Source: a phage. Taken from it: DNA of 64,000 nt. Position numbers and translations under genes: made by a program. This document shows positions 16,745-58,132 of this stretch, piece by piece. Each line of letters opens with the position of its first letter. Position 1 is the stretch's first letter. Location: sequence record NC_135729.1. The stretch is one strand, 5' to 3'. The notes below the pieces were generated by a model. The model was given only the letters and a program-made list of their open reading frames with translations. It was not told the DNA's origin and made no database searches.

Positions 16745-16821
16745 TGGTCTCCACGGAGTGATTCGAACACTCGACCTCCTGATCCCAAATCAGGCGCTCT
16801 ACCAAGCTGAGCTACGCGGAG
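16745..16821 (-). tRNA. tRNA-Pro (anticodon TGG)
   Basis: Hand-folded cloverleaf: C1-G72 acceptor, D-arm GCTC/GAGC, anticodon loop TTTGGGA, T-loop TTCGAAT, encoded CCA. Confidence 0.8.
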
Positions 16822-16832
16822 TATCTACTATT

Positions 16833-16907
16833 TGGTGGCCCTGGGTGGAATTGAACCACCGTCTGGCGATTATGAGTCGCTTGCTTGAACCTTCCAGCTA
16901 CAGGGCC
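16833..16907 (-). tRNA. tRNA-Met (anticodon CAT; initiator, elongator or Ile2 not resolved)
   Basis: Hand-folded cloverleaf, anticodon loop CTCATAA, T-arm GGTGG/CCACC, encoded CCA. Confidence 0.7.
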
Positions 16908-16908
16908 A

Positions 16909-16983
16909 TGGTGCTGATGGCAGGACTTGAACCCGCAACCTATTGATTACAAATCAATTGCACTACCAATTGTGCTACATCAG
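16909..16983 (-). tRNA. tRNA-Thr (anticodon TGT)
   Basis: Hand-folded cloverleaf, D-arm GCAC/GTGC, anticodon loop TTTGTAA, T-loop TTCAAGT, encoded CCA. Confidence 0.8.
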
Positions 16984-16988
16984 CAAAA

Positions 16989-17087
16989 AGGTGCTAGGCG
17001 GTGGAATCGAACCACCTATGTATTCAACGACTACCTCGTCTATTTTCAGGATTAAAAATCCTCGCCCTTGCCAAAGGGCTTACCTAG
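16989..17087 (-). tRNA. aberrant tRNA-like element (about 97 nt; anticodon unresolved)
   Basis: Canonical acceptor stem, D-arm (GCCC/GGGC) and T-arm (GGTGG-TTCGATT-CCACC), but about 30 nt extra between anticodon-like hairpin and T-arm. Confidence 0.35.
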
Positions 17088-17185
17088 CTCAATATGTTGA
17101 CCATGTTGCTAGTCGGCGATGACGACTGTAACATTTGATAATCCGGTTCTGCTTCCGGCTTTCGCTTAATTGCAAGGTCAACAAT

Positions 17186-17276
17186 GTGGCGGAGAGTAAT
17201 GGAATCGAACCATCATCGAGTCATCCTCAACGGGACGGTTTTCAAGACCGCTTGAGCACCATTGCTCCCTACCCTC
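17186..17276 (-). tRNA. tRNA-Ser (anticodon TGA), type II
   Basis: Acceptor GGAGGGT, anticodon loop CTTGAAA, long variable arm, T-loop TTCGATT, encoded CCA. Confidence 0.7.
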
Positions 17277-17392
17277 CTTTATAAATTATACTGATAATGA
17301 CACTGATTTTCGAGCAGTTAGTGACTAGTATAAACGACGATAAATATCAATGCCATTATCTGTATTATTTATGCATCTAAAAAATATAAATT

Positions 17393-17479
17393 TGGTGGGG
17401 AGTGGTGGAGTCGAACCACCCGAGTCGCAATGACAATAGATTTACAGTCTACACCGCTACCTCTACGGGATAACTCCCC
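17393..17479 (-). tRNA. tRNA-Tyr (anticodon GTA), type II
   Basis: Anticodon loop CTGTAAA; variable arm TGTCATTGCGACTCG closely resembles E. coli tRNA-Tyr; T-arm GGTGG/CCACC; CCA encoded. Confidence 0.75.
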
Positions 17480-17483
17480 AATT

Positions 17484-17558
17484 TGGCACCCCGTACTGGA
17501 CTCGAACCAGTGTCAACGGCTTAGAAGGCCGCTGCTTTATCCACTAAGCTAACAGGGC
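17484..17558 (-). tRNA. tRNA-Arg (anticodon TCT)
   Basis: D-arm GCTT/AAGC, anticodon loop CTTCTAA, T-loop TTCGAGT, encoded CCA. Confidence 0.8.
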
Positions 17559-19927: not shown

Positions 19928-20010
19928 GTGTCCGTATCACGGACAGTTAGTGTCCGTATTACGGGCAGATGTGTCCGCGTGACGGACAGTAGTGTCCGTA
20001 TCACGGGCAG
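19928..20010. repeat. array of four tandem 22-bp palindromic repeats (iteron/operator-like)
   Basis: GTGTCCGTATCACGGACAG and three close variants in direct tandem, each with internal dyad TGTCCGT/ACGGACA; adjacent to 120-bp AT-rich tract. Confidence 0.7.
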
Positions 20011-20084
20011 TTACTGACCTCTGTTCCAGAGCGAACATAAAACATACGAATCCTTATAGTACAGATATTTAAGTTTTTACTGGT

Positions 20085-20435
20085 CTAACCAGTTGTTGAC
20101 ATTCGAATAACCTCTTCTGGTGGCAAAACTTTGGAAAATGTACATCTTTTACCTCTCCCTTGTGTGGATATTTCAACCACTCCTGCACATTCTAAAGTTT
20201 TAACGCACGCTGCTGCTTTTGTTTTCTTTATCCCAACATCTGCTGCAATTTTCCTTGTGCTTGGTGTGAAGCGTGAATTTCCTCCAAGCTTATACCAGTT
20301 GTGCAGGTAGCAGTATACGATCTTGTCATATAAGTCAAGAACAACAGCCTCCCCAGTTGTGTCATTCAAAACTTTTGACATAGACAGTATTTCAAGGGGG
20401 ACTTTAAGATATAGCAGCTTATCCCCATCTTTCAT
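20085..20435 (-). CDS. hypothetical protein (possible DNA-binding protein next to repeat array)
   Basis: 116-aa ORF whose stop is about 75 bp from the palindromic repeat array. Confidence 0.4.
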   Translation of the reverse strand: MKDGDKLLYLKVPLEILSMSKVLNDTTGEAVVLDLYDKIVYCYLHNWYKLGGNSRFTPSTRKIAADVGIKKTKAAACVKTLECAGVVEISTQGRGKRCTFSKVLPPEEVIRMSTTG

Positions 20436-20482
20436 ATCTCCTGATTCTCCTTGTGTGGCAATTTTCTTTAAAATAGCAGGGA

Positions 20483-21037
20483 TTACTCCCCGCTGTCAAT
20501 AGCAAGACTCATTGCAATACGGTATGCCTCTTCTAATGGTAAGAGTCTCCCCCACACATCCCAACCGACATCAAACTGCCTGCCAAACAACTGCTGTGTG
20601 GTTCCGTGAGCATGACCGAACAGTTGGACTGATCCGTGAGGCTTTCTGTTCCACTTTGCAAACTGGTAATGGCTCATACAGATCAAATTCTTGTTGTGGC
20701 GAAGCTCGTAATAATCTACAACCTCATGACCGAACTCTTTCATAATTCTGACAGTCGTCCTTGTGTCATGGTTACCACGAACAAGAATAATATGTCCGTT
20801 CAACATATTTAGAACATCTGGGAGCAATTTGTTGATATTCTTATCATTAGTGCACGCAATATCTCCCAAGTGAAACACAGTGTCTGCAGGTGACACAACA
20901 GAGTTCCACTCGGCGATGATTCCCGCATTCATACTGTCAAGATTGTGATCATACTGAGATCTGTGTTTTTGACATGAATCAAACTCCATGACCCGCTGGT
21001 GGAGAAAGTGTGTGTCGCTTGTTACAAAGTATTTCAT
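20483..21037 (-). CDS. calcineurin-like metallophosphoesterase (putative polynucleotide 3'-phosphatase)
   Basis: Start at Met (MKYFVTSDTHF); metallophosphatase motifs D-T-H, GDI, VRGNHD, GHAH. Confidence 0.7.
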   Translation of the reverse strand: MKYFVTSDTHFLHQRVMEFDSCQKHRSQYDHNLDSMNAGIIAEWNSVVSPADTVFHLGDIACTNDKNINKLLPDVLNMLNGHIILVRGNHDTRTTVRIMKEFGHEVVDYYELRHNKNLICMSHYQFAKWNRKPHGSVQLFGHAHGTTQQLFGRQFDVGWDVWGRLLPLEEAYRIAMSLAIDSGE

Positions 21038-21044
21038 ACATTCC

Positions 21045-21455
21045 TCATTTAAGTTTAATGCAGTTTTTAAGCTGGCGTTCCATACGATCCACAACCTTGT
21101 CTGGAACATCATGAATGCTTTTATTACCGTGGCGGTTTTCAACCACGATCACGGTATAACTATACCCGTGACTGATTGCCATGTCAACATATTCCTGCAC
21201 ATGTTTTTCTTTTGTAAACGTATTACTTACCACGATACGGTCGTATCCCGTACGCATCATATCTTCTACGTTATCTTTGCACCATTTTGCTGCGAGTGTT
21301 ACTTTACTTGCATCCCAGTTGTAATTGCCGTCATCGTCATACCAGAACATGTCGTTCTCAAAATGTGGATACAGACCTTCTAAAGATAGCGCATTTGCCA
21401 GTGTTGATTTGCCAGACCCTGGCAGACCACGCACGATATATAGCATTTTAGACAT
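21045..21455 (-). CDS. P-loop kinase (polynucleotide kinase-like)
   Basis: Start at Met (MSKMLYIVRG) with GGAGGG SD; Walker A GLPGSGKST; immediately upstream of the phosphatase gene. Confidence 0.6.
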   Translation of the reverse strand: MSKMLYIVRGLPGSGKSTLANALSLEGLYPHFENDMFWYDDDGNYNWDASKVTLAAKWCKDNVEDMMRTGYDRIVVSNTFTKEKHVQEYVDMAISHGYSYTVIVVENRHGNKSIHDVPDKVVDRMERQLKNCIKLK

Positions 21456-21515
21456 AGCAACCCTCCGTTTTAATTTTAATGATAGTATACCTAACTGTTT
21501 TGTTAATTTCAAGTG

Positions 21516-21545
21516 TTGACACTAGGTTATTTGTGTGGCATGATA
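21516..21545 (+). promoter_or_regulatory. possible promoter for ligase operon
   Basis: TTGACA at 21516 but only a weak -10 candidate. Confidence 0.3.
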
Positions 21546-21573
21546 GACTGACAAAATGACAAATGAGGAACGT

Positions 21574-22491
21574 ATGATGAAGTATTTTAATGCAGATGAC
21601 CTAGTAGACAAAGGTCTTGTAACCAGTCGGTATTATCCAGATCTTGGATTAAAGATCTATAAATATGCCAGAAAAGTATTCTACAACAATCTGTGGCATT
21701 TGTCTCCGCGTTTACTGGAGTGCCGAGGTATTGTTGTTGGCAATGAGGGGAATGTTGTGGCATGGCCTTTCACAAAAGTATTCAACTTAGGAGAAAACTC
21801 CACCAACCTACCGGACAGTAAACTTGTTACTGCGGTAGAGAAAAAGAACGGATTCCTCGGTGTGGTATCATCTCATAAAGGTGAACTATTGTTCTCAACA
21901 ACCGGGTCTCTTGATTCTCCATATTGTAACCTTGCAAAGGAAACCATCCAAGAGCAATGTGGTAATTTAGATCTTATCAAGAAGGTTATGGGCAATGAAA
22001 ACATGACATTCATGTTTGAAATTTGTCACCCTTCAGATCCGCATATTGTTCAGGAAGATCATGGCGCATATTTGATAGGTTGCAGATATAATGATTCTGG
22101 AATAATGCTACCAGAAGCAGCTTTAGATGGGATTGCCAAATACCTTGGTGCAAAACGTCCTCACACTGTGCGTGAAATTCCGTTCAGCTATGCAAAAGAA
22201 TTAGCTGCAGAAACAAGAGGTGAAGGGTATATGATTCGTAAGCCTTACTACCCTTATGATCTGCAGCTGAAGATCAAGTCTCCATACTATCTGGCACGGA
22301 AGGCCGTAATGAGGGGTAAAGCTTGGAAGATTTGGGATGATGATATCTTTAAACGTGTTGACGAAGAGTTTTACGGCATGGTAAACTTCATTCGTAGCAA
22401 TTACACAGAGGATGTGTGGAACTGCCTCCTGGAGCAGGAACGCCGTGAGATACTTGATTACTATTTCCACAACGAGAACTATATGCAATGA
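21574..22491 (+). CDS. nucleotidyltransferase of ligase family, probably RNA ligase
   Basis: Motif I-like EKKNGF, motif III-like FMFEIC, motif V-like EGYMIRK; divergent from kinase/phosphatase pair; start uncertain (track start 21556). Confidence 0.5.
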   Translation: MMKYFNADDLVDKGLVTSRYYPDLGLKIYKYARKVFYNNLWHLSPRLLECRGIVVGNEGNVVAWPFTKVFNLGENSTNLPDSKLVTAVEKKNGFLGVVSSHKGELLFSTTGSLDSPYCNLAKETIQEQCGNLDLIKKVMGNENMTFMFEICHPSDPHIVQEDHGAYLIGCRYNDSGIMLPEAALDGIAKYLGAKRPHTVREIPFSYAKELAAETRGEGYMIRKPYYPYDLQLKIKSPYYLARKAVMRGKAWKIWDDDIFKRVDEEFYGMVNFIRSNYTEDVWNCLLEQERREILDYYFHNENYMQ

Positions 22492-22838
22492 AGAAGTTGA
22501 TTGTGTGGCTAGATGACTTAAGAGATCCGTCAAATTACGGGCTCCCAGACGCTGTTTGGCTGAAGAATTCCTCCGAGTTTATGGATTTTATTAACGATAA
22601 GGGAAAGCTCTACAGACGCGTTTCTGAGTGGCATATGGACAACGACCTAGGAGAAGTATTCGAAGGATACGATTGCCTATCCATGTTGGAGGAAAAATTT
22701 GTATTCGGTAAGCCTCCCGTGGTTGACAACGTGAAGATTTTCGTACATACTTCTAATCCATCAGCGGCTCGTAAATTCATGCTTGCAGCTGACTCGTTTA
22801 AAAAGTTTGGAATAGAGATTAAACAAAACATCTACTGA
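22488..22838 (+). CDS. hypothetical protein coupled to ligase
   Basis: 116-aa ORF overlapping ligase stop by 4 nt; conserved-looking acidic patches (WLDDLRDP, WHMDNDLG). Confidence 0.4.
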   Translation: MKKLIVWLDDLRDPSNYGLPDAVWLKNSSEFMDFINDKGKLYRRVSEWHMDNDLGEVFEGYDCLSMLEEKFVFGKPPVVDNVKIFVHTSNPSAARKFMLAADSFKKFGIEIKQNIY

Positions 22839-22846
22839 GGGCACTT

Positions 22847-23608
22847 ATGCGACGACTGATTATTATCTCCGGTGCTGGTTTGAGCGCTGAATCTGGTATT
22901 CCCACTTTCCGATCTGGTAGTACTGCAATGTGGGAGAATTTCAGCATAGATGAGGTGTGCAACATCCACACCTTCGCCAAGAACTACTATAAGGTGCATG
23001 ACTTTTACAATGCACGTCGTGTAGCTCTGGGCAGTGTTGATCCTAACCTTGCACATCTCCGGATCGCTGAGTGGTATTCCCGCTGGTCTGGTCGTGTGAT
23101 CAACCTGACCACCAATGTAGATGATTTGCTGGAGCGTGCTGGTGTAAAACATGAAGATATTTTACATGTCCACGGGTATTTGCCTGAAATCACCTATGAA
23201 GATACTGAAGGTAATGATGTAATTAAAAATATAGGGTACACGGAGGTAGATACAGGCAAGTATACCTGGGTTAAGCCCAATGTAGTGTTCTTCGGTGAGG
23301 TTGCTCCTAAGTATACAGACATGTATGACCTGTTGACATCTCTTACCAGCAATGATATGGTGATCCTGGTAGGTTGTTCTAACACAGTTATTAATTTTAA
23401 CTGGGAATTGTTTCCTGCTACTTGTAAAGGCACAAAACTGCTGATTGTAAACAAGTATGATTCGCAGAGTGCAGATGGAAGTGGCATTTCACGTAGCGAC
23501 CTTTATCAATATGAGGATCGCGGGATCCCTGTATGGTTTAACGGTGCTGTTGACGCTTTCTCTGATAAAGCATTTATTGAAACTGTAGAAAACTTTATGG
23601 AACTGTAA
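22847..23608 (+). CDS. Sir2-like NAD-dependent enzyme (sirtuin family)
   Basis: GAGLSAESGIPTFRS Rossmann motif, TTNVDDLLERAG and HVHG catalytic-His motif; no CxxC zinc ribbon seen. Confidence 0.7.
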   Translation: MRRLIIISGAGLSAESGIPTFRSGSTAMWENFSIDEVCNIHTFAKNYYKVHDFYNARRVALGSVDPNLAHLRIAEWYSRWSGRVINLTTNVDDLLERAGVKHEDILHVHGYLPEITYEDTEGNDVIKNIGYTEVDTGKYTWVKPNVVFFGEVAPKYTDMYDLLTSLTSNDMVILVGCSNTVINFNWELFPATCKGTKLLIVNKYDSQSADGSGISRSDLYQYEDRGIPVWFNGAVDAFSDKAFIETVENFMEL

Positions 23609-23622
23609 GAGGTGACCTTTTA

Positions 23623-24336
23623 ATGCTAAATACTAAACTGATCGACAACCTGGAAAAACTGTCTCAGCCAGAAAACTACCTTTGGTCTGCCAGTTGGGTG
23701 GAAAATTGGAACCGTGTAGCAGCTAAAGTGAAAAAATCATACACACCATTCGAACTCCAGCTCAGTTTTATTGAAGAAGAGTTTAATGAGGTTCTTGAAG
23801 AGTTGGAGAAAGGTGATGGTGGAGATCACCTGCTAAAAGAGGCCTGTGATCTGCACGTTGTTACAAGTTATGCCGCTTATCTTGTCAACGATAACTACGA
23901 AAAGTGGACAAGTCTGTTTGATAATTCGCGAGATATTAAGTTTAAGATTGGGGAGTTCTATGATACACTGATCGCTGCTAAAAACACACCAAAGCAAAAA
24001 GCGTCTGCTTACCGACTAGCGGAGTTATCAACAGCTTTGCTGTTCCAGCTTAGCGGGGATGTGTGTGGGATGATGCGGAAGGTTCTCAAATCTAATGACA
24101 GTAAGTTTGCGCGGATCAACCATCTACGGCATTCACACGGTGCTAGTGCAGATATGCCTGCTGAACAACTCATAGAGTTGGAGATTAAAGATCTTGAGCG
24201 ACGCTTTGATGGTCGCTACGAAGGTTTTGTTGCTAAGGAAGAGTTCTACAACGGTAATAAAGTTATCATATTCCTTGACAGTAAAGGTAAGATCATGAAG
24301 CCTTCGAGCTTCAAGGATGTAACAGAGTATATTTGA
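23623..24336 (+). CDS. hypothetical protein, possibly MazG-like NTP pyrophosphohydrolase
   Basis: EEEFNEVLEELEKGD ... KEACDLHVV resembles the MazG E-x-x-E ... E-x-x-D pattern; weak. Confidence 0.3.
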   Translation: MLNTKLIDNLEKLSQPENYLWSASWVENWNRVAAKVKKSYTPFELQLSFIEEEFNEVLEELEKGDGGDHLLKEACDLHVVTSYAAYLVNDNYEKWTSLFDNSRDIKFKIGEFYDTLIAAKNTPKQKASAYRLAELSTALLFQLSGDVCGMMRKVLKSNDSKFARINHLRHSHGASADMPAEQLIELEIKDLERRFDGRYEGFVAKEEFYNGNKVIIFLDSKGKIMKPSSFKDVTEYI

Positions 24337-24342
24337 CAACAT

Positions 24343-24369
24343 AGCCGGGTAATCCCGGCTTTACTTATT
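24343..24369 (+). terminator. intrinsic terminator-like hairpin
   Basis: AGCCGGG-taat-CCCGGCT followed by TTACTTATT. Confidence 0.45.
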
Positions 24370-24398
24370 ATGGAAAGTATGCAGCGAGGTAGTTAGTT

Positions 24399-24707
24399 AT
24401 GTACAAGCATTCCAGAGATCTTGAAAAAGATGCTGTGTTTGGCGACCAGATGAAGGAGCTGATCAAACTTATAGGTAGAATGGAAGATAAGTTTGACACT
24501 AAAATCTACATCGATAGCAAGATCTTCAACCACAAAATATGGACAAATGTGTGTGTTGGGCTACATGGTGATAAAGATATTGTAAATTTGGTTGTAATAA
24601 AGTTCATAGTGTGGCAGAATAAGACTATACGTTATTCCGATCCACACTTACTTGTTTATCCTATAAAAGACCTACTACAGAAGGAGGACTGCAATGCCGT
24701 TATTTAA
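24399..24707 (+). CDS. hypothetical protein
   Basis: 102-aa ORF. Confidence 0.35.
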   Translation: MYKHSRDLEKDAVFGDQMKELIKLIGRMEDKFDTKIYIDSKIFNHKIWTNVCVGLHGDKDIVNLVVIKFIVWQNKTIRYSDPHLLVYPIKDLLQKEDCNAVI

Positions 24708-24963
24708 TCTTGCTAAACCTGTAGAAGCCCACCAGTTTGACGGAAGCTCTTCATCAGTATCTGATCTGCAACGGTGGATTGATACAGGTGTGTTTACATC
24801 GTCACCTGTTCGGACCAGAGATCTTCGTCGCATGTGTGAGCTTGTCGAGCCTTTTGGTAACCTTGTCTTGTACCAGGGAGATTGGCTAGTTGACTTTATG
24901 GGAGACTGGTTGGTAATGAGTAAAGAAGAGATGTTTAAAATTTTTAAGGAAGAGGCCGAGTAA
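24694..24963 (+). CDS. hypothetical protein
   Basis: 89-aa ORF overlapping neighbours (coupled). Confidence 0.35.
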   Translation: MPLFNLAKPVEAHQFDGSSSSVSDLQRWIDTGVFTSSPVRTRDLRRMCELVEPFGNLVLYQGDWLVDFMGDWLVMSKEEMFKIFKEEAE

Positions 24964-26246
24964 TGCATCAAATCAAAACAACACTGTACGCACTGAACAA
25001 AGATGGCAGCTACCAACAGTGGAAAGTATTCACTGATGGCGAAAAGGTTATCGTAGAGTTTGGCAAGCTTGACGGTAAATTGCAGTACAAAGAGACGGTA
25101 TGCACACCTAAGAACGTAGGTCGTGCCAATGAGACTACAGCTGAGCAACAGGCCGAGCTTGAGGCTATCAGCAAGTGGGAAAAACAAGTCCGTCTGGGGT
25201 ATGTTGAAAACATGGAAGATTGCGAGCAGGGTGTTGATCTTTTACCCATGCTGGTGCATGACTACCTGAAGCGTGGCAAGGCACTTAAACTACCTTGCTG
25301 GATCTTGCGTAAGTTAGATGGCCTTCGTCTGCTTGTTGTTTTCCAAAATGGTGAGCCTAAATTTATTTCCCGTGGTAATAAGTCCTACCCTATTCAAGGA
25401 AAGCTTTTAGAGCAACTTCGTTCTTTCCATTCTACCACTGGGATTAAACAACTTGATGGGGAACTATACATTCATGGTCTTCCTTTGCAGAAAATAGTGT
25501 CTCTTGCTAAACGGTGGCGCACACAGGAAGAGATTCAGGCCGAGATCGATAAAGACTATGAGGCAGATAAAAAACGCCGTCATGCCGCAATTAAGTCCGG
25601 CTTATCAACATATAAAAACTTCAACAAGGTAGATATTCCTGTCGATGTTGAGCCTGTTCGTGATGATTTGCGTTACGGTGGGTACTGTAGCTACGATCTG
25701 GAGTATCACATTTTTGATATTCCTAGCGACAAGGTGTGGTGGGATCCCGAAACAGAGTCTGGACGCTGCAAGGATCTTATGGATGCAGAGGATACCGTTA
25801 CCACTCTGATGCTTGACCATATCAAGGTTGTTGACGCAGAGCTTGCGTACACAGTTGATCATTGCGAAGAATCTGTTGGTATATTCATGTCCGAAGGATA
25901 TGAAGGTACCATTATGCGTAACTTCTGTGGTAAATATGAGTACGGTCAGAGAACATCTGAAGCATTGAAATGGAAAAAGTTCAACGACGCAGAGGTGAAA
26001 GTTATTGACGTTGAGAAAGATAAGAATGATGAAGGTGTTCTTATCTGTGTTGACAAGGAAGGTATTGTTGTTAAAATGAAGATGAAAGGTACGCACGAGG
26101 AGCGTAGCTATGACAGAATGCAGGAAATGATCGGCAAGTTTGTCACCTTCAAATATCAAGCAAGGACAGAAGACAACAACTACCAATTCCCTGTCGGTAT
26201 CTGCGTCCGAAATGTTAACCCAGACACTTGGGAGGTGCTGGAATAA
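24963..26246 (+). CDS. ATP-dependent DNA ligase
   Basis: Motif I KLDGLR (KxDGxR), motif V-like EGTIMRN; 427 aa. Confidence 0.75.
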   Translation: MHQIKTTLYALNKDGSYQQWKVFTDGEKVIVEFGKLDGKLQYKETVCTPKNVGRANETTAEQQAELEAISKWEKQVRLGYVENMEDCEQGVDLLPMLVHDYLKRGKALKLPCWILRKLDGLRLLVVFQNGEPKFISRGNKSYPIQGKLLEQLRSFHSTTGIKQLDGELYIHGLPLQKIVSLAKRWRTQEEIQAEIDKDYEADKKRRHAAIKSGLSTYKNFNKVDIPVDVEPVRDDLRYGGYCSYDLEYHIFDIPSDKVWWDPETESGRCKDLMDAEDTVTTLMLDHIKVVDAELAYTVDHCEESVGIFMSEGYEGTIMRNFCGKYEYGQRTSEALKWKKFNDAEVKVIDVEKDKNDEGVLICVDKEGIVVKMKMKGTHEERSYDRMQEMIGKFVTFKYQARTEDNNYQFPVGICVRNVNPDTWEVLE

Positions 26247-26388
26247 TTTAGGTATGTTTAGTAGCCAATTGAATAAGTGTTTTCAATTTGCACCTACATA
26301 TGCCCTGATGTATGAACTGTGCAACCTAGCCACACCACACAGTGGTGCTGATCGGGGCTCGTTATGAGTGAACTGGAGAGTATGAAAA

Positions 26389-33357: not shown

Positions 33358-33561
33358 TTGGAGACCGAAATGACACTAGAGTTAACAATTCCAGACAGCT
33401 TTTCAGAAAACTTTATCCCAGAAATGATGAGTAAGATGCGATCATTGCTTGATCAGATTGAGGAGGCTGTTTGGGAAGACGATGCTGTAGTGGCTAACGA
33501 GCTGGTAGATAAGTGTAAAAGTATTATTGATGCAGTTGAAGAATACCACGGAGGTTTTTAA
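33358..33561 (+). CDS. hypothetical small acidic protein
   Basis: 67-aa ORF. Confidence 0.3.
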   Translation: METEMTLELTIPDSFSENFIPEMMSKMRSLLDQIEEAVWEDDAVVANELVDKCKSIIDAVEEYHGGF

Positions 33562-34175
33562 TGGATATTATTGTTCTTAACGCCCCACCCAGCAGTGGTA
33601 AGGATCACATTGCAGATCTCTTGTTGGAAGCTATTCCTAACTCACACCACCGTGAGGTTAAGGAAATGCTCTTCAGTGTGGCAATTAAGGCAGCTGGTGT
33701 AACTCCTCAACTCTGGAATGCACTTTATGACCGCCACTACAAAGAAGAGCCTTGCCCTTTCTTAATGATAGACGGCAAGCATGTTTCTCCGCGAGAATGG
33801 ATGATCCATTGTAGTGAAAATCTGATTAAACCTATCTTTGGTGAAGATGCTTTCGGTAAAGCCGCAGTCGCATCTTTGAAGAAAGATTTCCCTGAAGGTA
33901 AAGGGGTTATTGTTTACTCCGATGGGGGATTCAAAGAGGAGCTGGCATGCCTTAGCGAGTACGCATACAGCACAGGTGGAGATCTGTTGTTGTTCCGTAT
34001 TCACCGTGTAGGATATGACTGGGGAAATGATTCCAGAACCTATCTAAGTCTGGAAAAGAACGGAATAAAAGGGGTTGAGTTTGATGTTGTAAACCCTGAA
34101 GGTGCACCTTGGGAGTGTGCATCGGAGATTGTGTGCAAGTATATTGATGCTAAAGAGGCCCAAGAAGAATGTTAA
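33561..34175 (+). CDS. deoxynucleoside monophosphate kinase
   Basis: N-terminus IIVLNAPPSSGKDHIADLL parallels T4 gp1 dNMP kinase P-loop region. Confidence 0.6.
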   Translation: MDIIVLNAPPSSGKDHIADLLLEAIPNSHHREVKEMLFSVAIKAAGVTPQLWNALYDRHYKEEPCPFLMIDGKHVSPREWMIHCSENLIKPIFGEDAFGKAAVASLKKDFPEGKGVIVYSDGGFKEELACLSEYAYSTGGDLLLFRIHRVGYDWGNDSRTYLSLEKNGIKGVEFDVVNPEGAPWECASEIVCKYIDAKEAQEEC

Positions 34176-34762
34176 TCGGAATTGATGTAGATCTGACACT
34201 GGTAGATTCAGGAACAGCATGGTGGGAGTGGTTGGAGCGTTTGTATGGTCCAGCCAGTAAGACAGTAGCTAAACCTTCTAATGGGCTAATGTATTACGAT
34301 CTGTCAAAGTATTGGCCTGATCGTCCCAAAGAAAACATCATAGGACCTTTTGATTTCTGGAGTGATCCGTTCCTCTACGACTTCCTTAAGCCTGAAGAGG
34401 GGGCTATTGAGGTTATGAAAGATTTGGTGGCTCGTGGTCACAAGCTTGCATTTATCTCGGTATGCAAGAAAGGTCACCTTGCATCTAAATCAAGGTTCTT
34501 AAAGCGTTGGACCAGTGATTTTATGGATCTGGACGATCACACCCAGGGCCACGGCTTCTACGCCACACATTTCAAAGGTAATGTGGCTGTAGATGTTATA
34601 ATTGACGACAGGCATGAATACCTGAACCAATTCGCTTCACGACCTGAAGTTATTAAAATCCTAAAAGACACACCTTATGAGCAATTCGAGGAGTTAAAGG
34701 TCAGTGTTGACTATACCACTAATAGCTGGTATAAAATAGGAAAGTTTTTAGAAGGTATTTGA
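34169..34762 (+). CDS. HAD-family phosphatase (possible 5'-deoxyribonucleotidase)
   Basis: N-terminal HAD motif I GIDVDLTLVDS. Confidence 0.5.
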   Translation: MLIGIDVDLTLVDSGTAWWEWLERLYGPASKTVAKPSNGLMYYDLSKYWPDRPKENIIGPFDFWSDPFLYDFLKPEEGAIEVMKDLVARGHKLAFISVCKKGHLASKSRFLKRWTSDFMDLDDHTQGHGFYATHFKGNVAVDVIIDDRHEYLNQFASRPEVIKILKDTPYEQFEELKVSVDYTTNSWYKIGKFLEGI

Positions 34763-52488: not shown

Positions 52489-52732
52489 AATTCTTGATTC
52501 TAACGTCTACTTGGGACAATCCTTCCTGAATGGAAAGGTCGTTCCTGCGGTATACTTTGAAGGGTTGCCGTGGGATGATCCTGTGCGGCAACATCACAGT
52601 TATGTAGGCCACAACGTGGTGTTTATCTTGGGATCAGACCTGATCACCGCTGGTGCACCTGAATATTATTTCGGGGAAGAGTCCTACTATGCCTTTGGGG
52701 TAGGGTCAGATGCAGATATTGTAGAGCTGTGA
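52478..52732 (+). CDS. small acidic protein, paralog family member
   Basis: MKVKILDSNVYLGQSFLNGKV and GSDLITAGA; overlaps previous paralog. Confidence 0.45.
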   Translation: MKVKILDSNVYLGQSFLNGKVVPAVYFEGLPWDDPVRQHHSYVGHNVVFILGSDLITAGAPEYYFGEESYYAFGVGSDADIVEL

Positions 52733-52744
52733 TGGGTAACCGTT

Positions 52745-53143
52745 GTGAAAAATAAACTGTTCAAAGTTACAATGAAAATTCGCGGAGCTTGGAGCGTAAA
52801 GCAAGGGCGTATCCCAGAATTTGAGAAAGACTTCTACGTAGTCTCCACCTCGGAGGAGGCTGCATGCTGGCAGGCTGGCTATGCCTATGCAAGAACCTGG
52901 TACGAAGGATACCAGACTGGGGGCTATGACGGAGAAATTGTCAGCAAGGGTGTAGAAGAAATTAATGTGTTGACAAGTGAAAAAGTTTTTGTTATAGTGC
53001 ATCCAGATTCCAGAGTGAAGCATTACTGGAATGCCAGAACAAAAACTTGGACACCGTTTGCAGATTCTGCTACTCCACTTTTAAACCAGAAAGCTCTTGA
53101 CTCTGCCCCAAGTTATGGGGTTGTTGAAGAAAAGCTAAACTGA
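52745..53143 (+). CDS. hypothetical protein, paralog of ORF 54958..55353
   Basis: Shared block VFVIVHPDSRVKHYWNARTKTWTP versus KFVMRHPHSNIAYYWDVLNNEWTP. Confidence 0.45.
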   Translation: MKNKLFKVTMKIRGAWSVKQGRIPEFEKDFYVVSTSEEAACWQAGYAYARTWYEGYQTGGYDGEIVSKGVEEINVLTSEKVFVIVHPDSRVKHYWNARTKTWTPFADSATPLLNQKALDSAPSYGVVEEKLN

Positions 53144-56362: not shown

Positions 56363-56649
56363 TGAAAGATCTGGTTAAGATTAAGATTAAAGATACCAAT
56401 GGGGAGCTCAGCCATTTTGGAATTAATGATGGTGACGAGCTGATCGCACACCTGCCTACCAAGGAGGTTGTAAGCAAAGCAGTTGCCGGAGAAGAAGCTG
56501 CAATGCAGGCTGCAGGTGTGGATGAAAACTATGTAGCTATGTGCATGTGCCGAGATCAGGTTGTTCTGTATAAAGCGTATCGACCAAACGGAGCCACGGA
56601 GTGGCTTGTATTCCGACCCGAAGGATATGAAATCTTAGAGGCAATATGA
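56362..56649 (+). CDS. small acidic protein
   Basis: 95-aa ORF, coupled. Confidence 0.4.
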   Translation: MKDLVKIKIKDTNGELSHFGINDGDELIAHLPTKEVVSKAVAGEEAAMQAAGVDENYVAMCMCRDQVVLYKAYRPNGATEWLVFRPEGYEILEAI

Positions 56650-56738
56650 TAAATATTGCCAAGGTTGCAACGGCACTGTTAATTATTTGCTGGTCAGTAA
56701 CCTTAACACTGTGTCTTGTATTTCAGTGAGGTGCTTGT

Positions 56739-57002
56739 ATGAACATCCTGATGTGGGTTATAGCAGTGGCGTTTGTTGCATGTTTTTGCTGCTGGGTTGC
56801 GGTGAGGATTTCTGTAGCTACCCTTCGGAAGTTGGGGTTCTCAGAATGGGATATTAATATCCTTTCTTTTCGCAATGAGACAATATCAGCCGCCCTGCTT
56901 TGTAAGAAATTCAAGTGGGAACCTTGTGAGGTCATGAACTATCTAAGAACGGGAGATATCCCTGAAAGATTTAAAAAAGTTCTTGACGGTAAGGATAAAT
57001 GA
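56739..57002 (+). CDS. hypothetical membrane-anchored protein
   Basis: N-terminal hydrophobic helix MNILMWVIAVAFVACFCCWVAV. Confidence 0.4.
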   Translation: MNILMWVIAVAFVACFCCWVAVRISVATLRKLGFSEWDINILSFRNETISAALLCKKFKWEPCEVMNYLRTGDIPERFKKVLDGKDK

Positions 57003-57030
57003 TAGTATAGTGACTAACAAGAGGTGAGGA

Positions 57031-57171
57031 ATGACCGATTTTACTGAAGCTTTAATGATGGCCTTGTCTGTTTTAGCGCTATCGGTGTGTTTTGGGGCGT
57101 TATTCACATCTCTGGTTAAAGTTTTACATACAGTATTATTACCCAAGGAGCGCAGTAATGACGAAGATTGA
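57031..57171 (+). CDS. small hydrophobic peptide (46 aa, below ORF-track cutoff)
   Basis: AAGAGGTGAGGA SD; single predicted transmembrane helix; overlaps next start. Confidence 0.3.
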   Translation: MTDFTEALMMALSVLALSVCFGALFTSLVKVLHTVLLPKERSNDED

Positions 57172-57409
57172 CTTGAATGCTGGCGACCATGTTGTTGTCA
57201 AATGCATCGGAGATTATCTTGGATTCACAATCGGCAATACTTACGAGGCGGTAGTGGCGAAGGTTTATCATGATAAAGTCCTCAGTCTTGTATTTGACTG
57301 TGATGATGACGGAGATGACCGTTACGTCTGTGAGGTGCTGGCTCGTGACGATAGTGAAGACCAGAAATTCCTGGTTATTGAACTGAACGGTATTTTTGTA
57401 GAACGTTAA
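57158..57409 (+). CDS. hypothetical protein
   Basis: Start at Met MTKIDLNAGD with AAGGAG SD. Confidence 0.4.
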   Translation: MTKIDLNAGDHVVVKCIGDYLGFTIGNTYEAVVAKVYHDKVLSLVFDCDDDGDDRYVCEVLARDDSEDQKFLVIELNGIFVER

Positions 57410-57437
57410 TTTAAAACAACATAAGGAGACTCTTACT

Positions 57438-57743
57438 ATGGCTAAATCTAAAGTTGAACTGTTCACCTCTCTTCCTTCTGACACTGCAGAGCGTGATCGC
57501 CTTCGCAAAACAATCGAAGAACTGGTGGAACTCCAACTTCAGATTAAAGATCTGAAAGATGCCATTAAGGATATCATTCTCGTTGAGAAGCAGGATCACC
57601 TGTATTCTCCTAAATTCATCAAATCTCTGGTTGCTACCGAGTTTGATATTCGCTATGAGGCTGAAAAGCGTCGAGCTAAAATCGAAGAAGAGGTTGAGCA
57701 CATGTCCGAGGCAGACATTCTGTTCAAACGCTCTGTAGAATAA
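57438..57743 (+). CDS. hypothetical coiled-coil protein
   Basis: 101-aa charged helical ORF. Confidence 0.4.
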   Translation: MAKSKVELFTSLPSDTAERDRLRKTIEELVELQLQIKDLKDAIKDIILVEKQDHLYSPKFIKSLVATEFDIRYEAEKRRAKIEEEVEHMSEADILFKRSVE

Positions 57744-57750
57744 TGACAAA

Positions 57751-57779
57751 GAGGGGGGGCTTGGGCCCCTCTTTTTACT
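57751..57779 (+). terminator. intrinsic terminator
   Basis: AGAGGGGGGGC-ttg-GGCCCCTCT followed by TTTTT. Confidence 0.6.
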
Positions 57780-57799
57780 ATCTATGGAGGAGATTTGAG

Positions 57800-58132
57800 A
57801 TGGGTATACCGATCACTGTAAAAGAATTGAATGAACGTGATGCAGGTGGTCTATGGCCTGCACGAAAAATACGCTGCATCCGTATGAAAGAGAACCTTGA
57901 GCATCTTGAGCAACAGAAACGGATTGAGGTTGGCGATATTTTCGAAGTATTTTATTCTGATCGCCGTAACTGGGAAACCATTCAACCTTCCGGTTTTGTT
58001 CTTGCTAAGCTTGACACTGGAGAAGCGATTGTTCCTGGGTTGGATATTGTCTTCGAAATTATACAGGAGTGGGATCCGGACAAGATTAGATACGAAGAGC
58101 TATTCGGTGAAGGTATTATCAAACCTGTGTGA
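57800..58132 (+). CDS. hypothetical protein
   Basis: Track ORF start lies in terminator; start moved to Met MGIPITV with GGAGGAG SD. Confidence 0.4.
   Translation: MGIPITVKELNERDAGGLWPARKIRCIRMKENLEHLEQQKRIEVGDIFEVFYSDRRNWETIQPSGFVLAKLDTGEAIVPGLDIVFEIIQEWDPDKIRYEELFGEGIIKPV

Follow-up and report, generated by a model that had tools for sequence, protein, structure and literature searches.

A candidate heal-and-seal RNA-repair cluster in an rV5-like Escherichia coli phage and its known relatives

In phage T4, Pnkp (PseT) and Rnl1 (RnlA) repair tRNAs cut by the anticodon nuclease PrrC. Bacterial Pnkp/Hen1 systems, such as Clostridium thermocellum Pnkp and Capnocytophaga Pnkp1–Rnl–Hen1 (PMC4411300), combine a P-loop kinase, a calcineurin-type phosphoesterase and a ligase, while in fungal and plant tRNA splicing Trl1 (ligase, kinase and 2H cyclic phosphodiesterase) is followed by Tpt1/KptA. 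The closest description is a prediction from comparative genomics by Iyer, Burroughs, Anantharaman and Aravind (2022; PMC9503650, section 3.7.3), who outlined a 'sirtuin-centred NAD+-utilising RNA-repair' neighbourhood. Its type 2, with Escherichia phage V5 and Proteus phage Mydo as prototypes, holds a T4-like tRNA ligase, cREC, a nucleotide kinase, a sirtuin, a MazG-superfamily pyrophosphatase and a calcineurin-like phosphoesterase.

The same genes are described here in the same phage genus, in the genome of a Vequintavirus (rV5-like) E. coli phage (NC_135729.1; the window analysed is 64,000 nucleotides). We consider it probable (roughly 0.6) that the cluster at 20483-24336 is a phage heal-and-seal RNA break-repair module, likely one that undoes the cuts made in tRNAs by host defence ribonucleases. 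An earlier note on this DNA had proposed a tRNA-repair module. The RNA-end repair part of that proposal is supported by an Rnl1-type ligase, a polynucleotide-type kinase and a recurrent gene trio, but the idea is not new: both the cluster and the NAD-linked idea were already known as a prediction, published in 2022 with the same neighbourhood and mechanism (PMC9503650).

Layout of the locus

The cluster consists of two back-to-back operons, and all six genes lie where they had been noted before, with families backed by Pfam and PHROG. Gene positions bear out the description of the kinase and phosphatase as separate, adjacent minus-strand genes opposite a plus-strand ligase: the minus-strand operon runs from kinase to metallophosphoesterase, and the plus-strand operon from RNA ligase through cREC and Sir2 to a MazG-like protein. 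This operon layout is a computed result, as are the family assignments, the intact catalytic motifs and the recurrence of gene linkage reported below. Between the operons lie divergent sigma-70-like promoters (21479..21544), one for each, identified by consensus matches only: TTGACA-17-CATGAT with an extended TG on the plus strand (21516-21544) and TTGAAA-17-TATACT on the minus strand (21512-21484). The plus-strand operon ends at an intrinsic-terminator-like hairpin (24343..24360, plus strand), found by a consensus scan and called a terminator in the annotation of phage Murica as well. On the minus strand, a hairpin with a short T tract (20470..20494) overlaps the phosphoesterase stop codon; the consensus scan did not pick it up, but it too is a terminator in the Murica annotation and likely serves the kinase/phosphoesterase pair. 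Both operons are compact, tightly spaced and terminator-bounded. The 6.3-kb region is 90-99% identical across 110 phage records, and the phage's own ATP-dependent DNA ligase is encoded 600 bp downstream of the cluster.

A seven-member tRNA cluster had also been noted about 3 kb away. ARAGORN does find seven tRNAs (Pro, Met, Thr, an odd Lys(UUU)-like, Ser, Tyr and Arg; 16745..17558, minus strand), 2.9 kb from the repair genes. Five of the seven exceed the Rfam threshold with default filters, and the odd 99-nt tRNA scores 31 bits with laxer filters. This closeness is circumstantial and serves only as context for the module.

The kinase, phosphoesterase and ligase as a predicted repair set

The ligase (21556..22491, plus strand; 311 aa as listed) is an Rnl1-family ATP-dependent RNA ligase by Pfam (PF09511 RNA_lig_T4_1, 9e-15), PHROG (phrog_562, 4e-66), profile and structure comparison. 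It probably starts at ATG 21577, giving 304 aa, since this codon follows GAGGA at 21565-21569, homologues start with 'MKFNVDDL', and in the longer form pLDDT stays below 50 across residues 1-7. Searching the PDB with the family profile returned T4 Rnl1 as the sole match (E about 1e-12), and hhalign against T4 RnlA gave 97.5%. The AF2 model (pLDDT 89) has T4 Rnl1, the Trl1 ligase domain and Rnl3 as its top Foldseek matches; DNA ligases score 1e-4 or worse, compared with ~1e-11 for T4 Rnl1 and the ligase domains of fungal Trl1. Profile and predicted fold place the enzyme in the T4 Rnl1/fungal Trl1 group, and with neither DNA ligases nor capping enzymes. K96, E155, E223/G224 and K239/K241 are invariant, as are motifs I, III, IV and V. 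In the model, however, the C-terminal helical domain spans ~65 aa, compared with ~120 aa in T4 Rnl1. With so short a domain tRNA specificity cannot be assumed, which counts against the repair reading.

The kinase (21045..21455, minus strand; 136 aa) is a minimal P-loop polynucleotide-kinase-like protein, with matches to AAA_33 at 2e-10 and phrog_2071 at 3e-58, and starts at ATG 21455 as annotated in phage Murica. Its family has >8000 members, each ~130 aa, and keeps the P-loop, D35, N78/T79 and E106-N-R-H-G110 invariant. On the question of whether it groups with nucleoside or nucleotide kinases, alignment with Pnkp1 (4xrp), PSTK, T4 Pnkp and the C. thermocellum Pnkp kinase (4gp7) spans the entire profile, whereas alignment with nucleotide kinases is restricted to the P-loop. 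By hhalign the match to T4 Pnkp has a probability of 95.7% (E 1e-8); the same comparison finds no equivalent of T4 Pnkp R38, a point against repair. Kinase (positions 2-109) and ligase (441-686) both match the 737-residue profile phrog_8238, the pattern expected of a fused kinase-ligase protein.

The third member, a calcineurin-like binuclear metallophosphoesterase of 184 aa (20483..21037, minus strand), matches Pfam PF00149/PF12850 (Metallophos/Metallophos_2) and phrog_547 (4e-52), and its closest solved relative is aq_1665 (1xm7, 2e-10). All metal-binding motifs are intact: D8xH10, G58D59, G88N89H90, H123 and G141HxH144 are invariant among orthologues down to 32% identity. A TTG start at 21142, overlapping the kinase gene, had been suggested, but ATG 21037 is most likely, in agreement with the Murica annotation. 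It lies 7 nt past the kinase stop codon, so the two genes do not overlap.

The trio recurs in unrelated phage contigs. For example, phosphoesterase, ligase and kinase occur together in a 101-kb contig, and phages of about 146 kb carry the order phosphoesterase, RNA ligase, cREC, kinase, Sir2, shuffled relative to the present cluster. In freshwater contigs the kinase stop overlaps the phosphoesterase start, with a PF09414 ligase and a NUDIX protein near; in a 78-kb contig PRA-PH, PolyA_pol (CCA-adding type), Rnl1, Metallophos and kinase genes stand in a row. No T4-type Pnkp match was seen in the sampled loci, where the phosphoesterase is a constant partner of kinase and ligase. Because the trio recurs in unrelated contigs, in one case alongside a CCA-adding-type enzyme and in another with a ligase from a different family, the heal-and-seal RNA repair function predicted for it is well supported.

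In such a pathway the small kinase would phosphorylate the RNA 5'-OH end, the metallophosphoesterase would strip the 2',3'-cyclic phosphate or 3'-phosphate, and the ligase would seal 3'-OH to 5'-phosphate through a lysine K96-AMP intermediate. The cREC, Sir2 and MazG-like proteins may form an accessory branch, in which, most likely, cREC would open the cyclic phosphate to a 2'-phosphate, Sir2 would remove this using NAD+ in the manner of Tpt1/KptA, and the MazG-like protein, cREC or the phosphoesterase would clear ADP-ribose-phosphate by-products. We infer the substrates, the step order, all accessory-branch roles and the counter-defence purpose; the NAD-dependent step by Sir2 is suggested by gene linkage, which is not universal. 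Several further points weigh against the repair reading. The host E. coli already encodes a KptA, which leaves no obvious need for a phage analogue. Of five kinase homologues sampled elsewhere, two lack such partners, no repair genes neighbour the remote cREC homologues, and synteny among rV5-like phages owes much to common descent. A search of the literature found no biochemical or genetic test of the cluster.

Alternative roles for the cluster's genes

The most plausible alternative concerns Sir2 (22847..23608, plus strand; 253 aa), a sirtuin, as the earlier note had supposed, and one derived from the CobB/SIRT5-like class (PF02146, 7e-28; phrog_2162, 1e-108). The kinase, phosphoesterase and ligase could repair RNA alone, with Sir2 an ordinary CobB/SIRT5-type deacylase or an ADP-ribosyltransferase for host takeover, present because this is an early-gene block. 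We regard this as possible, though clearly less likely than the module proposed above. NCBIfam puts Sir2 nearest protein deacylases, its nearest solved structures are E. coli CobB (1s5p) and SIRT5 (about 3e-21), and it retains the Tyr/Arg pair (FYNARR), which we take to bind acidic acyl groups in those two enzymes. The clade is also separate from repair genes in several phages: it lies ~32 kb from the cREC/phosphoesterase cluster in four phages of roughly 150 kb, and T5-like phages have no ligase or kinase homologue within 8 kb of Sir2, both of which count against the repair reading. GAGxSAESG, FYNxRR, TNVDD, H109-G and KPNVVFFGE are invariant. However, the small peptide-binding domain has no conserved Cys in the family alignment and has lost all its zinc-binding cysteines, and GCSNTVINFNWELFPA stands in place of the usual GTSxxVxP motif. 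The clade also sits beside RNA-end enzymes in three separate arrangements: in rV5-like phages; in T5, where the orthologue and a HAD_SAK_2 'RNA repair' phosphatase are three genes apart; and in a 607-kb megaphage, where a relative lies two genes downstream of an Rnl1-like ligase.

An unlikely alternative is that cREC, the phosphoesterase and the MazG-like protein, perhaps with Sir2, are a separate counter-defence set and do not prepare RNA ends; their targets would be immune signals derived from nucleotides or NAD, namely variants of cyclic ADP-ribose and cyclic oligonucleotides, or the products of such signals, which they would destroy. The cREC protein (22488..22838, plus strand; 116 aa), previously listed as an unknown ORF, belongs to a known family: it matches PF20274 cREC_REC at 1.5e-14, a divergent receiver-fold domain with predicted cyclic-phosphate processing. 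The family was defined in PMC7824862, and both this paper and PMC9503650 allow action on cyclic ADP-ribose phosphate. The MazG-like protein (23623..24336, plus strand; 237 aa) is an all-alpha MazG/PRA-PH-superfamily pyrophosphohydrolase-like protein with a conserved C-terminal extension. It matches phrog_671 at 5e-21; Pfam is marginal for this phage's copy, but 7/8 orthologues match PF01503 PRA-PH (best 3e-7), and E52, E53, E56, D65, D76, S157, N158, K161 and GKIMKP are invariant. In two phages (L009 and L013) cREC, phosphoesterase and MazG stay together with no ligase or kinase within 8 kb, which also tells against repair, and NUDIX proteins accompany the kinase–phosphoesterase pair in the freshwater contigs. 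Against a signal-destroying role, cREC is translationally coupled to the ligase in this phage, through a true ATGA overlap (22488-22491) that upholds the coupling noted earlier; across lineages, no other partner accompanies kinase and ligase as constantly as the phosphoesterase; and a ligase may sit beyond the 8 kb examined in L009 and L013.

It is more doubtful still that the ends healed by kinase and phosphoesterase are those of DNA (5'-OH, 3'-phosphate), in preparation for the downstream DNA ligase. T4 Pnkp acts on DNA too, all rV5-like relatives examined, and L068 as well, have a DNA ligase homologue next to the cluster, and the phosphoesterase weakly matches the ligase-associated DNA-damage phosphoesterase PdeM (2.4e-4, far below cut-off). 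Yet the cluster has its own dedicated Rnl1-type RNA ligase, and in the freshwater and 78-kb contigs its place is among RNA ligases and a CCA-adding-type enzyme, where the listed neighbours include no DNA ligase. Finally, a main role for the ligase in tail-fibre attachment, the second activity of T4 gp63 implied by its GenBank product name, is very improbable, because the name shared by phrog_562 and many records ('RNA ligase and tail fiber protein attachment catalyst') is inherited from T4, identity to T4 RnlA is low and limited to the catalytic domain, and the gene shares an early or replication-side operon with end-healing enzymes, away from tail genes.

Comparison with known repair systems

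The kinase/phosphoesterase/ligase trio is a split-gene counterpart of T4 Pnkp and Rnl1. The chemistry is the same (5' kinase, 3'-end phosphate removal, Rnl1-family ligase), and kinase and ligase are demonstrable homologues of the T4 enzymes. In contrast to T4, kinase and phosphatase are encoded by two genes, a binuclear metallophosphoesterase acts as the phosphatase where T4 has a HAD/DxD domain, the ligase C-terminal domain is much shorter, and cREC, Sir2 and MazG have no counterpart in the T4 pathway. In domain chemistry the trio also corresponds to the bacterial kinase–metallophosphoesterase–ligase protein Pnkp, but the domains fused there are separate here, Hen1 methyltransferase is absent, and the phosphoesterase is nearest aq_1665 and not the Pnkp phosphatase domain.

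The match of the ligase model to Trl1 ligase domains is as good as that to T4 Rnl1, and the proposed accessory branch would mirror the Trl1/Tpt1 route (cyclic phosphate to 2'-phosphate, ligation, NAD+-driven 2'-phosphate removal). No 2H domain or Tpt1/KptA was seen among the island genes; cREC and Sir2 would be unrelated stand-ins for these. From the type 2 neighbourhood of PMC9503650, where the same KptA-like sirtuin role was proposed, the cluster shows no essential difference. Added here are the phosphoesterase as a constant, not occasional, partner of kinase and ligase in the loci sampled, the loss of the sirtuin clade's zinc cysteines, the operon architecture, and a sirtuin linkage that varies between phages.

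Genome setting and operon layout

The 3.9-kb island at 20483-24336 lies in a well-represented group of phages. Escherichia phage PDX is 98.7% identical across the 6.3 kb around it, and 110 phage records reach 90-99% identity over at least 80% of that 6.3-kb length, nearly all of them rV5-like (Vequintavirus) coliphages. The gene order of terminase, spanins, tRNA cluster, DNA ligase and endolysin is the same as in phage Murica. Eighteen GenBank records labelled 'Campylobacter phage' (MG0656xx, host Campylobacter jejuni) are 96-97% identical over 20000-26300 and are probably mislabelled or contaminant assemblies.

ORF calls with Pfam and PHROG assignments put the six island genes where the earlier note, made from the sequence alone, had placed them. 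The minus strand carries a metallophosphoesterase (MPE; 20483-21037; Metallophos, phrog_547 at 4e-52) and an AAA_33 P-loop kinase (21045-21455; phrog_2071 at 3e-58 and phrog_505, 'polynucleotide kinase', at 8e-10). The plus strand carries an RNA ligase (21556-22491; RNA_lig_T4_1 at 9e-15, phrog_562 at 4e-66), a 116-aa ORF (22488-22838; PF20274, cREC_REC, at 1.5e-14), a Sir2 protein (22847-23608; PF02146 at 7e-28) and a MazG-like protein (23623-24336; phrog_671 at 5e-21). Two details had to be revised: the phosphoesterase gene is not the long TTG-started ORF that runs into the kinase but most likely begins at ATG 21037, 7 nt past the kinase stop and in agreement with Murica; and the 116-aa ORF, listed in the earlier note as unknown, belongs in Pfam to the cREC, or 'cyclic-phosphate processing receiver', domain family. 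For the ligase, ATG 21577, preceded by GAGGA, is the probable start, a choice that agrees with the starts of homologues and with the structural model, whose first seven residues are disordered. The ligase stop and the cREC start share an ATGA.

The two divergent gene sets are separated by a spacer of about 100 bp, with back-to-back sigma-70-like promoter matches on both strands at 21484-21544 (consensus match only). Terminator-like hairpins lie 3' of the MazG-like gene (24343-24360, consensus match only) and across the phosphoesterase stop (20475-20494, a reading of the sequence); the Murica annotation lists the two as terminators. Together, the divergent promoter matches and flanking hairpins suggest that the island is a self-contained operon pair. 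The minimum of the cumulative GC skew, at about 20000-22000, coincides with the divergent promoters, and near it lies a helix-turn-helix protein (20085-20435) that PHROGs names 'replication initiation protein'. This region is a transcription strand switch and possibly an origin region.

Elsewhere in the window, several genes touch on translation or nucleotide metabolism. A 99-nt tRNA on the minus strand (16990-17088) is given a four-base anticodon by ARAGORN, and scores 31 bits against the Rfam tRNA model with the anticodon loop UUUUUAA (anticodon UUU). It has discriminator A73, a 4-bp anticodon stem and a hairpin insertion of about 26 nt in the variable region, and it is kept in 121 Vequintavirus records, where annotations vary (tRNA-Lys, tRNA-OTHER, tRNA-TERM or none). 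PrrC and PARIS both target tRNA-Lys(UUU), so the phage copy may be a Lys(UUU) tRNA that resists nucleases, which fits, and does not prove, a theme of translation protection. The gene at about 52495-52794, a position reckoned from Murica gp147 by offset, has a Murica orthologue with the annotation 'RaiA-like ribosome-associated translation inhibitor', which gives the phage a second function related to translation. A HAD-like gene (34169-34762) was considered as a 'Swiss army knife' RNA-repair phosphatase and proved instead to be an NT5C-type 5'-nucleotidase (7e-6). It shares a 7-base overlap with a P-loop protein that has no Pfam match (the pair spans 33561-34762, plus strand, upstream of ThyX), and these genes belong to nucleotide metabolism, not RNA repair.

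The kinase, phosphoesterase and ligase core

Searched as a single sequence, the ligase gave no useful match in the PDB. With a profile built from 30 homologues, only three entries matched, all of T4 Rnl1 (E 7e-13 to 1e-11), and hhalign paired the ligase with T4 RnlA at 97.5% probability. An AlphaFold model (pLDDT 89) gave the same grouping in Foldseek, with T4 Rnl1 at 6e-12, fungal Trl1 ligase domains at 1e-11 to 1e-9 and archaeal Rnl3 at about 1e-11; as a group, Rnl1, Trl1 and Rnl3 span 1e-11 to 1e-8, and DNA ligases appear at 6e-5 or worse. Motifs I (the KxxG lysine), III, IV and V are present and align with KEDG, FEF, EGY and KIK of T4 Rnl1, and the corresponding K96-x-N98-G99, F154-E155, E223-G224 and K239-x-K241 are invariant among the 30 homologues. 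On profile and model, the protein can be assigned to the Rnl1 family of ATP-dependent RNA ligases (T4 RnlA type). The alignments end at about residue 247, and the model continues into a helical C-terminal region (residues 243-306) about half the T4 length. The family is large, with 1,682 matches, mostly of about 300 aa.

The kinase sequence by itself likewise drew no useful match from the PDB, and a family profile was required. Over positions 2-129, this profile matches Pnkp1 of the Pnkp1-Rnl-Hen1 repair complex, the seryl-tRNA(Sec) kinase PSTK, T4 Pnkp and the kinase domain of Clostridium thermocellum Pnkp (CthPnkp), all at modest E-values of 6e-5 to 4e-3. Direct comparison with T4 Pnkp by hhalign reaches 95.7% (E 1e-8), spans the T4 kinase domain and brings the invariant D35 within one position of T4 D35/D36, T4 D35 being the catalytic residue that activates the 5'-OH. 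The P-loop (GLPGSGKST here), N78/T79 and an ENRHG motif are likewise invariant in a family of more than 8,000 matches to proteins of about 130 aa. No equivalent of T4 R38, the arginine that binds the substrate phosphate, is found in the family, where the aligned position is F, W or Y; the protein is therefore filed as polynucleotide-kinase-like and not as a Pnkp orthologue. A 737-residue profile, phrog_8238, matches the kinase in its N-terminal part and the ligase in its C-terminal part, as would be expected of a fused kinase-ligase family.

These results bear on the two alternative readings under which the repair idea of the earlier note would have failed. The possibility that the ligase is a DNA ligase or a capping enzyme can be excluded by the PDB profile search, which groups it with T4 Rnl1, and by Foldseek, which groups it with Rnl1, Trl1 and Rnl3. 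That the kinase is a nucleotide kinase can be excluded as well: adenylate, shikimate and gluconate kinases match its profile only at the P-loop (about positions 5-40), whereas the polynucleotide and tRNA kinases match near full length.

The phosphoesterase scores above the Pfam cut-offs, and its DxH, GD, GNH(D/E), H and GHxH motifs are all invariant in seven orthologues down to 32% identity, a pattern that places it among the calcineurin-like binuclear metallophosphoesterases. Its closest solved structure is the uncharacterised protein aq_1665. A role as an RNA 2',3'-cyclic phosphodiesterase or 3'-phosphatase, as in CthPnkp, is predicted from gene linkage only.

That linkage can be followed outside the rV5-like lineage. 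A 101-kb contig encodes MPE, ligase and kinase in that order. On freshwater contigs, the kinase stop overlaps the MPE start; a NUDIX protein precedes the pair, and 1.8 kb downstream of it comes a ligase from another family (PF09414). An unrelated 78-kb phage-like contig (JGI 3300050046, P0284) encodes in series GTP cyclohydrolase I, PRA-PH (MazG-like), PolyA_pol (CCA-adding type), an Rnl1-type ligase, Metallophos and an AAA_33 kinase, a row of six genes that is a fuller tRNA-repair cassette. Of the context evidence that would have the kinase-MPE pair heal RNA ends, the strongest is the exchange of the ligase for a non-homologous RNA ligase, together with the company of a tRNA-nucleotidyltransferase-type gene. 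Two other kinase homologues stand alone, and no related locus holds a T4-type Pnkp phosphatase domain. Taken as a whole, the profiles and gene contexts make it likely, with a probability of roughly three in four, that the core of kinase, phosphoesterase and ligase acts on RNA.

The cREC, Sir2 and MazG-like genes

The 116-aa protein matches the PF20274 family model and has a receiver fold, with D9, D10, D51 and D53 invariant or nearly so. In 12 related loci, its neighbours are ligase, kinase, MPE and Sir2, in line with the company of RNA-repair or ADP-ribose genes, and never of a partner histidine kinase, that is expected of the family. Remote homologues (30-35% identity) have no RNA-repair neighbours at three loci and were dropped as an extension of the linkage. 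The cyclic phosphodiesterase activity of cREC is a published prediction (PMC7824862).

The Sir2 protein scores 98 bits against PF02146, and among solved structures E. coli CobB and human SIRT5 come nearest to it (about 3e-21). The NAD-binding and catalytic motifs GAGLSAESG, TNVDD and H109-G are invariant, as is FYNxRR, whose tyrosine and arginine bind acidic acyl groups in the class III sirtuins SIRT5 and CobB. The four-cysteine zinc module is missing: residues 112-143 hold no cysteine, and eight orthologues conserve none in this stretch. The usual sirtuin GTSxxVxP motif is remodelled in this clade, and more distant jumbo-phage relatives retain CxxC...CxxC. Judged by its sequence, the protein is a zinc-less sirtuin variant, a loss of which Iyer et al. 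2022 (PMC9503650) make no mention.

The MazG-like copy in the window, a candidate member of the MazG/PRA-PH superfamily of all-alpha NTP pyrophosphohydrolases, falls under the Pfam cut-off at 13.6 bits. Seven of eight orthologues match PF01503 (PRA-PH; best 3e-7), the acidic helix residues E52, E53, E56, D65 and D76 are invariant, and the sole PDB match is weak (0.22).

Loci collected from IMG/VR with cREC and Sir2 profiles show how far these genes travel with the core. Phages of about 146 kb encode, all on one strand, MPE, ligase, cREC, kinase, Sir2 and a DNA ligase, and then MazG. Two loci carry cREC, one intervening gene, MPE, ligase and kinase, with Sir2 about 32 kb off (L011 and L012), and two more carry cREC, one intervening gene and MPE, then a DNA ligase and MazG, with no ligase or kinase of the core within 8 kb and Sir2 again about 32 kb off (L009 and L013). 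In phages with distantly encoded Sir2, a conserved protein of 133-134 aa (phrog_839, no Pfam match) lies between cREC and MPE (L009:8450-8851, L011:8444-8848). Three other phages have MPE, ligase, kinase, a 161-aa phrog_652 protein and Sir2, with no cREC detected nearby. The 161-aa protein occupies the cREC slot between kinase and Sir2 (L056:7079-7564, L053:7302-7790, L060:7090-7575); neither Pfam nor PDB sequences match it, and PHROGs assigns it no function. A NADAR domain, suspected at first, was unsupported by Pfam, PHROG and PDB profile searches.

In phage T5, T5.102 is an orthologue of the zinc-less Sir2 (57% identity). Three genes away is T5.105, which matches HAD_SAK_2, the 'Swiss army knife RNA repair' phosphatase family, at 4e-20. 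In T5-like loci, homologues of the ligase and the kinase are absent within 8 kb. The T5.102 operon (record positions 56447-58094) holds T5.105 and also two DUF7415 proteins, and the RefSeq label 'Sir2' on T5.105 appears to be a mis-annotation.

Proposed route, significance and comparison with known systems

In the core reading, the kinase would phosphorylate the 5'-OH end, the phosphoesterase would take off the 2',3'-cyclic or 3'-phosphate and the Rnl1-type ligase would join the healed ends. An accessory branch can be proposed by analogy, in which cREC would open cyclic phosphates, Sir2 would move ADP-ribose from NAD+ onto the 2'-phosphate and remove that phosphate in the manner of Tpt1/KptA, and the MazG-like protein, cREC or MPE would then clear the ADP-ribose phosphate products. 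This branch is doubtful. The still bolder reading, in which a zinc-less, CobB-derived Sir2 would be an RNA 2'-phosphotransferase replacing Tpt1/KptA and cREC a new type of cyclic phosphodiesterase, we consider unlikely. If it were true, sirtuins would gain a new substrate class, with the Tyr/Arg pair binding the phosphate.

The 2'-phosphate idea for Sir2 and cREC is already in print as a proposal, as Iyer et al. 2022 (PMC9503650, section 3.7.3) described this exact neighbourhood and proposed a KptA-like role for the sirtuin. The earlier note, which had read the island as a possible tRNA-repair module with an NAD-dependent step, identified a real feature and read it soundly in outline; its idea is not new, having been published as a computational prediction (PMC9503650). 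Literature searches found no experimental work on the module, on cREC or on an RNA-acting phage sirtuin. The present comparison makes small additions: across the sampled loci MPE is a constant partner and not an occasional one, the zinc site has been lost from the sirtuin clade, sirtuin linkage is incomplete, and a putative operon architecture can be described. As a real cluster already known from prediction, the locus is a moderately interesting experimental target, and a ready one, rather than a discovery.

Its interest lies in the biology of phage defence. Nucleases that cut tRNA are now seen as common effectors (PrrC, RloC, PARIS, retron-Eco7/PtuAB, Cas13a and bacterial Schlafens), and phage repair modules, the counter-measure to them, have hardly been studied outside T4. 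More than 100 sequenced rV5-like coliphages carry the module, and among phages of this group are some that have been evaluated for phage therapy. In metagenomes, the compact ligase family numbers about 1,700 members and the kinase family more than 8,000. Confirmation of the Sir2 step would add nucleic-acid end-processing to the activities of sirtuins and would explain the presence of a sirtuin in both T5-like and rV5-like phages.

Set against known systems, the ligase differs from T4 Rnl1 in its C-terminal helical region, which has about 65 residues compared with about 120 in T4, where this domain gives tRNA preference; with so short a region, a T4-like tRNA specificity should not be assumed. 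The folds of KptA and Sir2 are unrelated, and the likeness to Tpt1/KptA is a functional analogy drawn from gene context (PMC9503650). Should that analogy hold, the phage would run a '2'-phosphate' ligation route of the yeast and plant type beside a route of the T4 type.
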